64,000 nt of DNA from Escherichia coli. Lineage in GTDB: Bacteria; Pseudomonadota; Gammaproteobacteria; Enterobacterales; Enterobacteriaceae. Under the pieces are notes generated by a model. It had not been told where the DNA came from. It worked only from the letters and a program-made list of their open reading frames with translations, and made no database searches. The position numbers were made by a program, and so were the translations under genes. Every line of letters begins with the position of its first letter. Position 1 is the stretch's first letter. The stretch lies in assembly GCF_048403405.1 (NCBI RefSeq), contig NZ_CP183129.1. The stretch is one strand, 5' to 3'. Positions 4,924-42,358 of this stretch are shown in pieces.

Positions 4924-6204
4924 ATGAAGAAAATAAGTTTAACCACGATGATTCTTTTGGCGCTGGTACTTGGAATGATTATCGGCGTAGTGCTCAATAA
5001 CACTGCTTCACCGGAAACCGAAAAACTCTATGCGCAAGAAATATCGATATTCACGACGATTTTCTTACGACTGATAAAAATGATTATCGCTCCGTTAGTG
5101 GTCTCTACCCTGGTGGTAGGTATAGCTAAAATGGGCGATGCCAAAGCCCTTGGTCGTATTTTTTCTAAAACACTCTTTTTATTTATTTGCGCCTCATTGC
5201 TGTCAATTGCCTTAGGCTTGATAACAGTAAATTTCTTCATGCCAGGCACAGGAATTAATTTTGTTGCACACGGAGCCGAAACCACCGGAGTGGTCGCGTC
5301 AGAACCCTTTACGCTAAAAGTATTTATTTCGCATGCTTTCCCCACCAGCATTGTCGATGCCATGGCGCACAATGAAATTTTGCAAATCGTGGTGTTCTCA
5401 ATTTTCCTCGGCTGTAGCCTGACGGCGATTGGCGAGAAAGGCAGCGCCATCGTTCACGCCTTAGATTCGCTGGCACATGCCATGTTAAAGCTCACTGGCT
5501 ACGTCATGCTCTTCGCTCCCCTGACCGTATTCGCTGCTATTTCAGCATTGATTGCTGAACGAGGACTGGCAGTTATGGTGAGCGCCGGGATCTTTATGGG
5601 TGAATTTTATTTCACCATGTTATTACTTTGGGTGCTGCTTATCGGTCTGGCCATCGTTTATGTTGGCCCCTGCATCAGACGCCTGACCCGCGCCCTTTCG
5701 GAACCCGCCCTGCTGGCATTTACCACATCCAGTTCTGAAGCGGCTTTTCCGGGAACGCTTGAAAAACTGGAGCAATTTGGCGTTTCCCCCAAAATTGCCA
5801 GCTTTGTCTTACCCATTGGCTACTCATTTAATCTTGTTGGATCAATGGCCTACTGCTCCTTCGCCACAGTTTTCATCGCCCAGGCCTGCAATATCCATTT
5901 ATCCATCGGTGAGCAAATCACCATGCTGTTGATCCTGATGTTGACCTCGAAAGGAATGGCTGGCGTACCACGCGCCTCAATGGTGGTTATCGCCGCCACG
6001 CTCAACCAGTTCAATATTCCGGAAGCGGGGCTGATCTTGCTGATGGGCGTTGATCCGTTCCTTGATATGGGGCGTTCCGCGACAAACGTCATGAGCAACG
6101 CAATGGGCGCTGCGATGGTGAGTCGGTGGGAAGGCGAACATTTCGGCGAGGGTTGTCGGGGTAAAGCATTAAAACCCAATGAATCGAACGTTGCTCTGCC
6201 CTGA
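4924..6204 (+). CDS. sodium:dicarboxylate symporter family transporter (glutamate/aspartate or C4/C5-dicarboxylate:cation symporter-like)
   Basis: About 426 aa, highly hydrophobic multi-helix protein; GGAGG 5 nt upstream of the ATG at 4924 (longest ORF begins at 4903). Confidence 0.75.
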   Translation: MKKISLTTMILLALVLGMIIGVVLNNTASPETEKLYAQEISIFTTIFLRLIKMIIAPLVVSTLVVGIAKMGDAKALGRIFSKTLFLFICASLLSIALGLITVNFFMPGTGINFVAHGAETTGVVASEPFTLKVFISHAFPTSIVDAMAHNEILQIVVFSIFLGCSLTAIGEKGSAIVHALDSLAHAMLKLTGYVMLFAPLTVFAAISALIAERGLAVMVSAGIFMGEFYFTMLLLWVLLIGLAIVYVGPCIRRLTRALSEPALLAFTTSSSEAAFPGTLEKLEQFGVSPKIASFVLPIGYSFNLVGSMAYCSFATVFIAQACNIHLSIGEQITMLLILMLTSKGMAGVPRASMVVIAATLNQFNIPEAGLILLMGVDPFLDMGRSATNVMSNAMGAAMVSRWEGEHFGEGCRGKALKPNESNVALP

Positions 6205-35997: not shown

Positions 35998-36057
35998 TAC
36001 TGCTCCTGAGATATTAACAGGAGTAAGTGTAGACGTTGGGAAATGATGTTTGTGAAG

Positions 36058-36906
36058 TTAATCCTGTTGTAGCAGGACAAGATTACGAAAGCGCGCTCCC
36101 CGCAAGGACTGACGCCAGATAGTTTCTGTCCATGGCTGCCCTTTCCATTCAAACGTGAAATCAATAAGTTCATCAGGGACACCGCAAACAATATGAAGAC
36201 GGATTTCTTCTCTGCCGTGACTCTTTTCACTCATTGCGAAACTGTCATGCTCTGGATTATTTAATTCTTTCAGTGGGAATTTTTCCTCAAAGGCTTTATT
36301 AAGCCGTCCCTGATTTCCTTTTACAGCGAATAAATAATCACCGCCCTGTTTTTGTATCTTCTCTGCGATATCTTTCTGGCAACCCATCGCATCAGTTGTG
36401 ATAATTTTTCCTTTAATATCCAACATGTTAAGAAGTTCAGGGATAGCTGTGATCTCATTGGATTTCTCATCCGTCCTGATCTGTCCGATGACCAGACTGT
36501 GCATTGTTGAGAACGCACTAATGACATGAATCGCTCCCCTGCGGCGACTCTTGTCATAAGAATGCCGGAGCGTTTTTCCATCAATTGCAATAACGTCTTT
36601 ATCATCTGAAGAATGGCAGTCACGCATCCAGTTAATAAAGCACTCGTGAAATTTTGCAGGACTGATACAGGATACAACTCTGGCAATGGTATCGTGAACA
36701 GGAATACCATTTTCAAAATCACCATATTGCTTCAAAAAATCGAGATGTGTTTCCCCAAAATCCTCTATATCTTCCCAGCCTTCTGCACCAGAAATAACGG
36801 CACAAATAGTCAACAGTAGAATATCCGACAATTTATGTTCCACTTTCCAGGCTTGTCTGTAATCGGGGATAATAGAAATATGTTCCATCAATTTTTTAAG
36901 TTCCAT
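36058..36906 (-). mobile_element. ybfD: H-repeat-associated (ISAs1-family) transposase gene, 3'-truncated remnant
   Basis: 282 aa ORF with N-terminus [51 protein letters not shown] typical of H-rpt proteins; homology ends after ...FTFEWKG, then an unrelated short tail (full-length proteins are about 378 aa as recalled). Confidence 0.8.
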
Positions 36907-37013
36907 TTTGTTCTCCTTAATTATGTAAAGAGTATTTGATCATGTATACGCAATAAAAAACAGCTTCAGGTAATGAGGAATATCTCAATTTTTAAACATA
37001 AAATGCGAATTAC

Positions 37014-37593
37014 TTAGTACAAAAAGTGTACTTCTGATGATCTTTCCCTGTCCTTGGCACCATCATTTTTTGACGCTTCAAAAATACTACTACAAGTGAG
37101 TTTAGAAAACTCTTTTCCAGATAATTCTCCAGGTTGTAATCCTCCGCCGCCAAAAATCCTACTCCCAGGATTTCCATACCTATTTAGAGCATATGAATAG
37201 CAATTATTTACGGCAAGATAATACGCATCTGAATTTAGTTCTCGATTGAATACTGGAGCAGGTTTATCAATTAAGCCCAGCGGATCAATAGAATAGGTTG
37301 GATGTATGGAAGCATATACATACTGATTCCACCCGCCTTCCAGCCCAATCGGTTCCTGAGTGATATACCGCCCCTGCAGCGGGTCATAATAGCGGTGGCG
37401 GTTGTAATACAGGCCGGACTCCTCATCATACTGCTGCCCCGGCAGACGGATAAGCTGCTGCAGGTGCTGCGGGTTCTCTTCAGTCAGCAGGTTGCCCCAT
37501 TCATCATATTCTGCGCACCATTCTGTTGCCCCGTCAGGGCTGATAAGCGTCAGCGGCAGGCCGCGATAGTCGCAGTGGTAGAGGTGGATTATT
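37014..37593 (-). pseudogene. orphan rhs core-end plus alternative C-terminal toxin (CT) fragment, no start codon
   Basis: Minus-strand translation gives ...[12 protein letters not shown]...[46 protein letters not shown] then a unique tail ending ...SSEVHFLY, stop at 37014-37016; 37340-37600 is a near-identical DNA repeat of 38690-38950 inside the main rhs gene. Confidence 0.75.
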
Positions 37594-37623
37594 CGCAGTG
37601 GTAGAGGTGGATTATTCGCAGTG
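37571..37623. repeat. 23-bp tandem direct repeat (2 copies plus a partial third) at the 5' edge of the orphan rhs fragment
   Basis: CGCAGTGGTAGAGGTGGATTATT at 37571-37593 and 37594-37616, then CGCAGTG. Confidence 0.9.
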
Positions 37624-37706
37624 ATCTATATGCCAACGTCATCTTATTTTTCATCTACTCCAACGAGTAGACAAGTTTTTTATTAAACCATTTATACCTT
37701 TTACGA

Positions 37707-38210
37707 TTAAATTTTCTTATGTAATAGAGGTGAATAATCTTCCCAAAAATCCATACAAGCTTTACTTGCATAAAAGAATCCAGCGTCTGATTCATAAGAC
37801 ATAAACTGTGCAATAATAGATAGTTGTATATCTGAAAAATTAAAAACAAAATTCAAAAAATCATCGTGATCCCGATACTCAGGACATAAATATTGTTGAA
37901 TAAAATCGGATTCAAAAACCCAAAAATCATTCTTATTAAACAACGAGGCATAAATATACAGAGGGATGTAATAGCAGAATACTTTCTCAGGGAGGAATGT
38001 AATTCCTAACTCTAAAGCATAAGAGTCATCCTTTATTTTAAAATTGTTGGCTATTTCATTCCATTGTTTCTTTTGGAAAAAATTATATACAATATCCAGT
38101 TCCTCCAGCCCTGTAATATCATTTGAAATATGAGGTAATGGCTGGCATGGGAAATGAATCATAAGTTCATCATAGACTGCACTCTCGTTAGAGAAAATTA
38201 TTTTTTTCAT
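37707..38210 (-). CDS. candidate Rhs immunity protein (RhsI-like), cognate to the main Rhs toxin tip
   Basis: 167 aa from [16 protein letters not shown]; its ATG overlaps the rhs stop (ATGA at 38207-38210); low-GC, no signal peptide; position directly 3' of the toxin gene. Confidence 0.6.
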
Positions 38211-41200
38211 TTTATTAAGCCACTGCAATCAGCTGCTGTTTTATATGCTTTATTCTCTTCTTCCATATGGGCCTTATCTCCACCACCAAAGCACTGATTA
38301 TTAATCTGCTTTCTGACCGAAGCGCACGCCAAATTTATCTCGTACCGTCTCAATATTTCTTTTCTCAGCATCTGAGGAGCGCAAGCTCTAGACTGGTTAC
38401 ATAATCTGTTTTTTTCATTTTGTAAGTCACTCAGGTTCTGGGGACTACAGTTACCACCAGGATTTACACCTGACTTATGTTCATCTGTTAATTTGTCGGC
38501 TTCTGGATTAACTTTACGGCCATATTGATCTCTGCGTTGTTGCCCACTTTGGATAACACCACCTGATGAAAATAAACCGCAACTCATCAGTGCTACAACA
38601 CTAAGAATTAACGGATTTAACCCTTGTGGGTCTATCTCTGAGATCGGATTTAACGGATACTGATAAAAATTCCATCCCCCCTTAAGCCCAATCGGATCCT
38701 GAGTGATATACCGCCCCTGCAGCGGGTCATAATAGCGGTGGCGGTTGTAATACAGGCCGGACTCCTCATCATACTGCTGACCCGGCAGGCGGATGAGCTG
38801 CTGCAGCTGATGCGGGTTCTCTTCATTCAGCAGGTTGCCCCATTCATCGTATTCTGCGTACCACGCTGTTGTCCCTTCCGTGCTGACAAGCGCCAGCGGC
38901 AGGCCGCGATGGTCGCAGTGGTACAGGTGGATTTTTCGCGCCGGCGTGTACACCGGGTCCATCTGGTTTTGCATCTGCTCCACCGTCAGGCCGCACGATG
39001 CCAGCCAGCGGCGGCTTTCCTCGCTCACCCGGTCAGTAAGGATTTCACTTTCCAGCCGGTCGAGCATCTGCACCAGCACCGGCGGGAACACCACTCTGCC
39101 ACCGTCTTCGCCGCCGGACTGCTGAAGGGCATCCGCCAGGCTGCGGCGCTGCGTTTTCGCCAGCTCACCGGTGGCGGTTTCAACTCTGATGAGTGGCGTG
39201 AAGCTCCCCGGCTGATAAACCGTCTGGATGCGGGTTCTGTCGTTCTGTATTGTGGTCAGCCGGTCGCCGTCCCAGCCGTACCAGGTCACTTCCGGTTTCC
39301 GTGACAGCGACATCCAGCCCGTCAGGTCCCGTTCACGCCGCCATACCCGTTTTGCCACCCTGCGGCCCAGCGGGTCGTAAAGATAGCGACTTTCGACCAG
39401 CGGCTCTGCATATTGTGTCCGCGTGTAGTGCACCAGCCGGTGCCGGCTGTCGTAATGATACCGGTGAGTCCGCTCATCATCCGTGCGGATAACCCCTTCC
39501 GGGATGAGGTCGGTTTTCTCTGTCAGCCTGCCGTGACGGTCATACCGGTAAAGATAGTGCGCGTCACGGGCGATACGGTTATCCGGCCACATGCTGAGGG
39601 TGCTGTCCGGGTGCAGCTCCGGGTCGGGCAGGCGGTTGCCTGCCGGGTCCGTGGCATACGGGATGCGGATATCCAGATTCGCTGCGGTGGTGTGGACGCC
39701 GGTCAGCCTGCCGGTGTCGCTGTAGCTGTAACTCCGGGTCTGGCGCGGGCTGCTGATGCGGATGAGTTCGCCGTTGTCGTTCCAGGTGTAATCGCGGTCA
39801 TACTGCAGGCTGTTCAGGTGCTGGCTCTGTAACTGCCCGGCAGAGGTGTAAGCGGTGGTGAGTTCATAACGGCCGAAGCTGCGCAGCGTTTCCCGGTGCA
39901 GGCGGTCGCGGGTGAAATCCACCAGCGGTGTGTCGCCGAGTTTCATGCCTGACAGCCAGCCGCTGCCGTAGGTCAGCCATTCCACGGCGGGCAGGCTGTC
40001 CGGTATACAGCGGTTCGCCAGTCCCTGCGCGTTGTACGCATGTCTGGTTTCATGCTGCCAGAGCAGTGCTTCCGTCTGCGGGTGATGCACCGTCTGGCGC
40101 TCACCGGTCAGGCGGCCTTTCTCATCATACCCGTAATGCACCGTCACCCGGTGGCCTTCGCTGAGATGGCTGATGCCTGTCAGCCAGCCGCGTTCGTCAT
40201 ACTGCCACTGCTCTGCAGGTTCACCCTTCACGGTGCGGTGAGTGAGGCGGTCTGCTTCGTCATAGTGCCAGTGGGTGACCAGCCCCTCATCCTCGCTGCG
40301 GATAAGTTTACCGGTCAGGTCGTGGTGATAACGCTGTGTGCGGCCGTCAAAGCCGGTTTCCTGTATCAGCCGGTCAAGTACATCGTAACGGAAGGTGGTG
40401 TGGCTGCCGTTTTCACTGGTCAGGCGGATGACCCGCCCGGCAGCATCGTATTCCATACTGCGCGTCAGACCGCCCTGCGTGGTACGAACGGGCTTTCCCC
40501 ACGCATCGTACTGTGTCCCGTTTCTGCTGCCGTCCGGGGCAATGACGGCGGTCAGGTCACCGGCGGCGTTGTATTCATACCGCGTTTCATGGCCCTGCGT
40601 GTCTTTCACCGCAATTAACTGTCCACGGCTGTCGTATGCGCGGTACTGACTCAGCCCTTCCTCGCGGTGCACCGCCGTCACCTGACCAAAACGGTCATGG
40701 TCATAACGGGTTACATAACCGGAACAGTCAGTGACGGTCAGCAACTGACCGTAACGGCTCCATGTCATGGTTTTCCGGCTGCCGGTGGCATCTTCCGTTG
40801 CGCAGGGTAAGTCACTGTGTGGATTATCATAACGGTAGCGGGTGATATCGCCGTTGTGTGCGGTTTCCTGAATCAGACGGCCGGATTCATCATATTTGCG
40901 GCGCAACTCCAGCCCGTCAGTCCCGGTGGCTGACGTTAACTGGTTGTGGTGGTTATAGTAAAATGCCGATGCCCTGCCATCCGGTGTGGTGATGCGCGTG
41001 ATGAGTCCCGTCACCACATCCGGGCTGTACTCAGTCGTCCGGCCTGCGGCATCCGTCTGTGCCTTAAGCCCGCCCACCGCGTCAAACTGACTCTGCGTGA
41101 CGCTGCCGTCCGCGTGTTCCTTTTTCACCACCCGCTTCAGCCCGCCTTCGCCCTGCGTGTGCAGCACTTCACGGCGGTCCAGACTGTCGGTGATGGTGAT

Positions 41201-42358
41201 GCGGTCTTTCTCATACTGATACGTGTAGCTTAAGCCTGCCGGGTTTAGCTGTTCTGTCACCCGCCCGTCGCTGTCGTAACGGTAACGGATATCCGGCCGG
41301 CCCGTGTGACGGTGCGCCACCATCCGGCCCCGGTATTTATCATCGTAAGTAAAGCTGCGCACCTGTGTATTGCTGCGGTCATACACCGCCGCCAGTTCGC
41401 CGCGTGGCGTCCAGCCATAGCGCACCAGCGGCGCGGCAGGTAAATTCTCCGGGTATTCCGGGTCGTGCGTCAGCCACACGGCAGACAGACGGATGCCGTT
41501 GTCCCGGCCATATTCGGTGTAACCCGGCAGGGTATCAGGAAAAACGGACGGTTCCGTCCCGCCGGAAATGGCCTGCTGCCGGGCTTCTTCTGCCCGCTGC
41601 GCCTGCGTGGTCAGTACCAGCCGGAAGTGACGCCCGGCACCATCCGTCACGCCGGTGATTTCGCCGCTGAATTCGCCGCCAGCCTCACGGTGAAACGTCT
41701 GTGTGCGCCCGAAGCGGTCCACCAGCCCGGTCAGTACCCGGTACGGCGGCAGCGGCGCGGGCAGCACCTCATCCGCCTCCGGCACCCGCTCACACCAGCC
41801 GAGTACCCACCACGGCCCCTGCGGACTGTTTGTCGCCAGATAACGATGCGGACTCAGGCGAAGCTCTTCCGGCAGCGCCTGCCAGAGTGCGGCCAGCCGG
41901 TGACCTTCATCCAGTTTCGCCACGCCGCCGCGCACCAGCCAGAGTGACTCGCTGCGGCTGTAACCGTCCTCACCGGGAAACAGGTGCTCAAAATACAGGC
42001 TTCTGCCGCCGTTATCACTGAGTGTCAGTGTGTTATCGCGCAGCTGTAAGCGGATATCCGCAGGCATTTTCCAGCCGGGGCCGAGGCTCCCCACCGGCGC
42101 GGGCGTTTTTGTCCGGTAACTGCTGTAGGTGCGGGAGAGGATGAACGGCAGCGGGCCGGGCAGGGCAAGGTCGGTTTCGCCGGGAAGGACCTTCGCACCG
42201 AGCAGCGGATTGACCGGATGGCCGGACGTCACCCCGCCGGGGCACACCGAACAGGCCACGCCGGTGGGGGCACCAATACGTACCCCGGCTGAACCCTGAA
42301 CAATGCTACCGCCATACTGCGTCATGTCGCCCTGACGCGCCGCCGGTTTTCCGCTCAT
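38207..42358 (-). CDS. rhsC: Rhs-family polymorphic toxin (YD-repeat protein with variable C-terminal toxin domain)
   Basis: 1383 aa; N-terminus [34 protein letters not shown]; many YD repeats; conserved core end ...[17 protein letters not shown]...DPQGL followed by a unique Cys-rich tail; symbol from synteny with ybfA-kdp. Confidence 0.85.

Follow-up and report, generated by a model that had tools for sequence, protein, structure and literature searches.

A detached, IS-truncated and frameshifted Rhs toxin tip at the RhsC locus of Escherichia coli

The RhsC locus and its orphan tip

The window that we analyzed, a 64,000-nucleotide stretch of Escherichia coli DNA, carries the RhsC locus, in which ybfA, rhs, an immunity gene, an orphan rhs tip, a ybfD H-repeat and ybgA follow one another (Table 1). 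Strain TUM14771 matches the window with 100% identity across 36900-37720, and its PGAP annotation lists kdpFAB, ybfA, an "RHS element core protein", a hypothetical protein, an incomplete RHS pseudogene, an incomplete ybfD ISAs1 transposase, ybgA and phrB in that order. The equivalent slot of K-12 holds rhsC, ybfB, ybfO, ybfC, ybfQ, ybfL and ybfD. Within the rhs core (38691-42358) the window and TUM14771 differ by 33 mismatches and no gaps, with both flanks and the orphan identical. These differences may stem from gene conversion between paralogous rhs genes, from a source strain that is distinct though closely related, or from mixed paralogues in one of the assemblies.

Table 1. Features of the RhsC locus, in positions of the 64-kb window
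Feature	Position	Strand	Basis
E. coli RhsC locus: ybfA, rhs, immunity gene, orphan tip, ybfD H-repeat, ybgA	whole window		
Main rhs gene, full-length, 1383 aa	38207..42358	-	ORF list; "RHS element core protein" in TUM14771 (PGAP)
Tip B, C-terminal tip of main rhs, Ntox16 toxin domain	about 38210-38698	-	Pfam PF15523, E 1.2e-12
Putative tip B immunity gene (immB), 167 aa, WP_000720081.1	37707..38210	-	ORF list, PGAP; role from position
Non-rhs spacer, probably arrived with the tip B cassette	37624..37706	-	window and one-copy allele, both translated
23-bp tandem duplication	37570..37623	.	TRF; units 37570-37592 and 37593-37615, partial 8 bp 37616-37623
Orphan	about 37014-37625	-	ORF translation
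Rhs core-end fragment of orphan	37341..37596	-	homologous to main rhs 38684-38939; Pfam PF03527 "RHS protein", E 5.5e-12
Tip A, divergent orphan tip	37051..37340	-	translation; comparison with full-length tips; family alignment
IS-derived orphan tail: last base of junction Asp codon, 11 codons, TAA	37014..37050	-	IS terminus 37050
ISEc1 / H-repeat copy (ybfD), ISAs1 family	36073..37050	-	BLAST against intact ISEc1 copies; PGAP "ISAs1 family transposase", incomplete

The main rhs gene ends in an Ntox16 toxin tip, here called tip B, and a hydrophobic stretch precedes the Ntox16 domain. The next gene, immB, overlaps the rhs stop by 4 nt and, judged by this position, is the putative immunity gene of tip B; its product has no NCBIfam family and no Pfam match. 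Between immB and the orphan lies a spacer that, among complete E. coli genomes, is seen only together with the orphan; no donor context for the spacer or the tip B cassette was found there.

The orphan itself is a minus-strand frame of 203 open codons (37017-37625), bounded upstream by a TAG at 37626-37628 and closed by a stop at 37014-37016, exactly as the initial annotation had translated it. Among ATG, GTG and TTG codons, the frame contains one TTG only, two codons before the stop. Its upstream part is homologous to the core end of the main rhs with 91.8% identity (235/256) and a perfect run of 83 bp, at an offset of 1343; past this 256-bp segment the homology to the main gene stops. The initial annotation had correctly recognized the repeated core end, but its second interval was 7 bases off and it overstated the similarity as near identity. 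Aligned at the offset of 1350 that its intervals imply, the two segments are 23% identical.

Downstream of the core end, the frame continues into a divergent tip, which we call tip A. The PxxxxDPxGL boundary motif that precedes Rhs tips appears here as DPLGL (37272-37286), and what follows corresponds to the first ~75 residues of a Cys-His toxin domain that is ~150 residues long when complete. The copy keeps the NNCYSYA motif with its invariant cysteine and lacks the invariant C91 and D113-Y-H-W-x-R of the family. No Pfam domain was found in the orphan tail. With a core 3' end, a boundary motif and a tip unrelated to the Ntox16 tip of the main gene, the orphan has the architecture of the orphan rhs-CT modules that arise by C-terminal displacement (Jackson et al. 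2009, PMC2935791; Poole et al. 2011, PMC3150448). It also has no N-terminal or core delivery region and, in the window, no start of its own; an in-frame ATG is found in a one-copy allele described below. No cognate immunity gene follows the tip in the window, and one does follow it in an intact version from another assembly. We conclude that the window copy is a degraded member of the orphan rhs-CT class.

The tip is cut by an ISEc1 element. We mapped the ends of this element by comparison with two independent, unrelated ISEc1 copies, and both terminal inverted repeats, CAGGGAAAGAT... and CAGGACAAGAT..., could be placed. The element is 94-97% identical to ISEc1 copies and to K-12 ybfD, and an internal deletion of about 313 bp makes its transposase a pseudogene. 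No target-site duplication was found at its ends, where the flanks CCTGTTGTAG and TCCTTGGCAC differ. With an interrupted transposase and no duplicated target site, it does not look like a simple recent insertion. It is the orthologue of K-12 ybfD, with which it shares a collinear junction on the ybgA side. On that side, 18 bp (36055-36072) separate the right end of ISEc1 from the resumed homology to IS-free loci upstream of ybgA. The same 18 bp occur in K-12, so they belong to the old ybfD insertion haplotype.

Because the IS terminus at 37050 falls inside the reading frame, the orphan takes its last 11 codons and its stop from IS sequence, to which the next 107 bp belong as well. The initial annotation had taken these 107 bp as the gap before the H-repeat remnant; they are the distance to the transposase ATG at 36906, i.e., the leader of the IS itself. 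It had also treated the tip as complete, but the truncation removes the distal ~74 residues of tip A, including the invariant DYHW motif, and the gene for a 124-aa immunity protein bearing a signal peptide is gone as well.

Intact tip A and the family it belongs to

The missing parts could be read from other strains. In a survey of 5,426 complete E. coli genomes with probes for the junctions, the tip DNA and the tip A immunity gene, tip A DNA (37051-37300) was present in 283. In strains such as JNE21-003, MLI114 and NA3664, it forms the C-terminus of a full-length protein at the RhsC locus, WP_001605137.1 (1391 aa), and this arrangement occurs in 41 genomes. A 124-aa ORF (WP_000494465.1, which we call immA) overlaps the end of the attached tip by 16 nt, and ybgA comes next, with no IS present. 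Intact tip A extends 74 residues past the truncation in the window, via ...DLDNGSCPSGYHKAQLFIRPHNFIGMGGDYHWYRQDANGEWSDKQG...CGTICLPN. The immA product begins MFTKLSIAILLAFSAYVHA/ETS, which by the -3,-1 rule reads as a canonical Sec signal peptide.

A second arrangement links these loci to the window. A contig of assembly GCA_044158945.1 carries an intact orphan with the same 5' junction as in the window, one copy of the 23-mer, complete tip A, immA and ybgA, and no IS. Thus the same tip exists as the C-terminus of a full-length Rhs protein and as a complete orphan with the junction seen here, in agreement with the proposal of the initial annotation that the orphan is a toxin tip displaced by recombination. 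Its companion proposal, which ties the loss of the immunity gene to the H-repeat, is likewise borne out: every intact tip A has cognate immA behind it, the 41 genomes with full-length immA equal in number the 283 with tip A DNA minus the 242 with the IS junction, and immA was not found anywhere in the 64-kb window. In 337 other complete genomes that have no tip A, we observed an unannotated 132-nt remnant of the immA 3' end (equivalent to 6419-6550 of L005, one of the loci with full-length tip A), 97-98.5% identical. This remnant suggests that tipA/immA was once widespread at the RhsC position and has since suffered partial deletion, either on many occasions or in a deep ancestor.

What kind of toxin tip A might be is less easily read. 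Full-length tip A has no Pfam match even at E <= 10 and no NCBIfam match, and the same is true of immA. When the truncated tip was used as query in a word-index search of proteins, one partial Shigella fragment was the only match. An exhaustive HMMER search of 1.84 billion representatives nevertheless assembled a family of 14 clusters at 50% identity, the longer members of which carry Rhs/YD-type core-end sequence upstream of the domain. Residues N34, C35, Y36, A39, C71, C91, D113, Y114, H115, W116, R118 and K128 are invariant in the family alignment, and C151 and C155 nearly so. C91, D113, Y114, H115, W116 and R118 all lie past the truncation, which ends the window copy at about residue 84. 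Of the presumed catalytic pair, the window copy thus keeps C35 and is missing H115. The tip A family is small and has no model in Pfam or NCBIfam.

A sequence-profile search of the PDB with tip A had a best E of 0.13 (autolysin hits ~0.1), Foldseek against the PDB was non-significant, and no family profile of clan CA peptidases (Tox-PL, NlpC/P60, CHAP) matched. Against AFDB50, the predicted model of tip A found matches by Foldseek with E from 1e-7 to 1e-11, TM of 0.6-0.7 and 22-34% identity. The matches are many uncharacterized bacterial, archaeal, algal, cnidarian and mollusc proteins, among them the "insoluble matrix shell protein 1" of molluscs and corals; the domain family seems to have no Pfam model. 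Intact tip A may adopt a papain-like fold, with fold neighbors among NlpC/P60 and CHAP enzymes. Together with the Sec signal of its immunity protein and the conserved cysteines, these fold neighbors make intact tip A most likely a periplasm-acting papain-like Cys-His hydrolase, and plausibly a peptidoglycan amidase or endopeptidase.

The 23-bp duplication and its distribution in populations

The 5' edge of the orphan is marked by the tandem repeat that the initial annotation had seen there, and TRF returns the same unit of 23 bp in 2.3 copies that are 100% identical (37570-37623). Comparison with strain Survcare321, in which the segment is 23 bp shorter, shows what the locus looks like with a single copy: the 8-bp direct repeat TCGCAGTG stands on both sides of 15 bp. 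These two repeats would be a suitable slippage substrate, and slipped-strand duplication is the probable mechanism.

The duplication matters for the reading frame. The spacer upstream contains a GGAG placed 3 nt before an ATG (37652-37654) and a second ATG at 37640-37642. With a single copy of the unit, the spacer ATG and the rhs fragment share one frame, giving an ORF of 205 aa whose product is predicted from the DNA. In the window this ATG opens only a 21-codon ORF (37589-37654, stop included) that ends in TAA. The orphan is start-less because the 23-bp duplication shifts the spacer ATG out of the rhs frame. The description of the orphan as start-less therefore holds for the window, where none of the 203 codons is ATG, but not as an original property. 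Judged by the condition that the initial annotation had set against its own view, an in-frame start, the one-copy allele is an ORF with a start.

An inverted repeat, TCTACTC-N4-GAGTAGA, spans 37654-37671, and in a transcript of the minus strand both the GGAG and the first AUG would be base-paired within it. The hairpin over these elements is modest and falls short of significance (z = -1.5), and no Shine-Dalgarno sequence precedes the second AUG. We also considered the hairpin as a terminator after immB and rejected it, as its T-run lies on the plus strand only and its z is the same -1.5.

The structure recurs in about 242 independent complete genomes, so chance is no concern. Among these roughly 242 genomes that carry the orphan, about 110 have one copy of the unit, 130 have two and 2 have three. 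The probe for the duplication junction, which reports at least two copies, matched in 132 genomes and matched twice, indicating three copies, in 2 of them. One of the three-copy genomes is LH85-a, where the locus (about 5998-6090) is longer by 46 bp and also out of frame; one other genome gives two probe matches. The orphan 5' junction was found in 241-243 genomes and the IS/tip junction in 242. The agreement of the two counts means that no truncated tip has moved onto a main rhs; indeed, we found no fusion of the truncated tip to the main rhs among the 5,426 complete genomes.

We compared haplotypes over ten fetched loci. In one flank group, all four fetched strains have one copy. In a second, three strains that share a common flank haplotype have two copies, and the three-copy LH85-a is the sole departure. 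The lineage of the window represents a third flank type, 2-3% divergent, and yet its orphan segment is identical to that of the two-copy group. Across backgrounds with flanks 2-3% apart, the remnant shows only 0-2 mismatches in 519 bp. Such near-invariance could reflect recent horizontal spread and is also compatible with constraint. Rapid switching accounts for the pattern of copy numbers less well than does a single origin that spread through descent and recombination, with a further slippage now and then.

A step in divergence lies exactly at the IS/tip junction, with the IS differing by 2.5-3% between lineages over its full length and the orphan by 0-2 positions in 519. The mismatches in the IS reach 37013 and 37027, nearly to its end. 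We considered breakpoints inside the IS as the cause of this step and rejected them, since the mismatches run almost to the IS end. Either recombination tracts ended at the junction or the IS was homogenized against other ISEc1 copies in each genome.

History of the locus and comparison with known systems

The arrangements found in present-day genomes can be ordered into a proposed history. The ancestral locus would have been rhs-tipA, immA and ybgA, as is still extant in 41 complete genomes. A cassette consisting of an rhs core end, the Ntox16 tip B, immB and about 85 bp of spacer would then have recombined into the core and displaced tip A downstream, leaving an orphan with 256 bp of core homology that gained an in-frame ATG from the spacer by an accident of the junction. 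This stage survives in one assembly with tip A and immA intact. A deletion or recombination associated with ISEc1/H-repeat would next have taken out everything from the distal ~74 codons of tip A through immA to the intergenic DNA before the old ybfD beside ybgA, so that the orphan frame now enters the IS for 37 bp and stops. The IS may have come to lie against the tip either by insertion plus IS-IS recombination or by an adjacent deletion. Finally, slippage between the two 8-bp TCGCAGTG repeats would have duplicated the 23-bp unit at the 5' edge of the orphan and frameshifted the ORF away from its ATG. The anatomy of the locus, the truncation, the frameshift and the population frequencies are directly observed. 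The order of the last two steps, slippage as the mechanism and the lack of function are what we infer, the last from the sequence only. We put the probability at about 0.85 that the orphan is a non-functional relic of an older tip A at the RhsC locus, produced by displacement, IS truncation and the 23-bp frameshift. The orphan is a triple-hit pseudogene: detached from its delivery core, truncated with loss of its immunity gene, and frameshifted.

The initial annotation had suggested a different role, that of a reservoir for tip switching. On this view the orphan persists as a spare: exchange within the shared core segment would join tip A to the main rhs and arm the cell with a different toxin. 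The shared core, 256 bp at 92% with its 83-bp perfect run, would be enough for RecA-dependent exchange, and there is precedent in Salmonella LT2 with 522 bp at 95% (PMC3967940). In 41 genomes, moreover, full-length Rhs carries tip A as a real effector tip. However, the C-terminal half of the domain, invariant His motif included, is missing from the window copy, so fusion would yield a dead effector; the cognate immunity gene is absent from the window, and exchange with the main rhs would also delete tip B and immB. The 242 IS-truncated tips, set against 241-243 orphan 5' junctions, leave no recombinant in 5,426 complete genomes. We regard the reservoir idea as sound for the family (PMC2935791, PMC3150448) but unsupported for the window copy, for which it is very unlikely. 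Expression from within the fragment, as in a toxin-antitoxin-like unit, would bypass the frameshift altogether. Orphan rhs tips of Salmonella have an internal promoter, whose transcription start lies 89 nt upstream of PxxxxDPxGL, and their translation begins at a CTG codon (PMC7043789), so the absence of ATG, GTG and TTG here does not prove the absence of a product, and the conserved core end is kept in the orphan. Yet the domain is truncated, the partner immunity or antitoxin gene is missing, and the only promoter-like site near the orphan on the minus strand has its first hexamer at 37245, downstream of DPLGL. Intact tip A also appears built for the periplasm, given the signal peptide of its immunity protein and its conserved cysteines, so that action in the cytoplasm would be unexpected. 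We consider an internally expressed fragment extremely unlikely.

A phase-variable switch is suggested by the repeat itself: the number of 23-bp copies (one, two or three) would toggle the orphan ORF from the spacer ATG, with only one copy in frame. Three copy-number alleles are indeed seen, the one-copy allele has an ATG-initiated ORF of 205 aa with GGAG upstream, and tandem duplications revert by slippage. Nevertheless, copy number tracks haplotype, with the three-copy LH85-a as the sole departure, and the duplication travels with the orphan haplotype at 0 mismatches to the window, which points to one origin and inheritance or transfer. What would be regulated is a truncated toxin with an IS-encoded tail, from a ribosome binding site and first AUG inside a hairpin or a second AUG that has no Shine-Dalgarno sequence. 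Such toggling is extremely improbable. A broader version would take the repeat as a true, contingency-type copy-number switch through which selection repeatedly silences a harmful orphan ORF of core end, half toxin and IS tail, and would join to this the proposal that intact tip A represents an uncharacterized periplasm-acting Cys-His family whose fold recurs in the mollusc and coral "insoluble matrix shell protein 1"; taken as a whole, this is a long shot. There is practically no chance that the repeat or the fragment was mis-assembled from rhs paralogues, the artefact that the initial annotation had wished to guard against. Rhs loci are repetitive, and the 33 core mismatches to TUM14771 within identical flanks might have raised the suspicion, but the identical two-copy junction stands in 132 independently assembled complete genomes from many laboratories, one- and three-copy alleles occur in others, and the IS/tip junction occurs in 242. 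The 132 independent genomes rule the artefact out.

Taken as a relic of tip A, the feature in the window adds one ordinary decaying tip to an Rhs locus that has been studied well, and PGAP already annotates it as a pseudogene. What the surrounding genomes add is the life cycle of a displaced tip with all its stages extant in E. coli: attached, orphaned but intact with its immunity gene, IS-truncated, and frameshifted. The ~242 strains that carry the relic are predicted to have lost immunity to tip A and should be killed by the 41 strains still armed with it. Intact tip A and its signal-peptide partner may merit biochemical characterization.

Compared with canonical orphan rhs-CT modules, the window copy is likewise a core-end fragment with a PxxxxDPxGL boundary, a divergent tip and no usable start. 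Canonical modules keep a complete toxin and its immunity gene, whereas this one stops at residue ~84 of a ~150-residue toxin domain and has lost the immunity gene. For the intact tip, papain-like clan CA (NlpC/P60, CHAP) amidase effectors such as the T6SS proteins Tae3 and Tse1 offer the nearest parallel. The model of intact tip A places an invariant cysteine at a helix N-terminus (NNCYSYA) and an invariant histidine on a beta-strand (DYHWYR), as might be expected of such an enzyme, and a signal peptide on the immunity protein is a feature common to both. Unlike these effectors, tip A has no Pfam or NCBIfam match even at E <= 10, its family is small at 14 clusters, and the copy in the window is without the His half.

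Closer to the locus, the orphan occupies the same chromosomal slot as K-12 ybfO(rhsO)/ybfC, between rhsC and the ybfD H-repeat, but its tip is unrelated to that of ybfO beyond the core end. The left end of K-12 ybfD abuts other H-repeat fragments, in contrast to the truncated toxin gene found at this position in the window. The rhs-CT(orphan) of Salmonella Typhimurium LT2 (PMC3967940) is alike in pairing a main rhs and an orphan in tandem with a recombinable core segment, although the homologous stretch measures 256 bp at 92% here and 522 bp at 95% there. In LT2 the orphan has stayed intact together with its immunity gene and gives a competitive advantage, whereas the one in the window would give a truncated effector.
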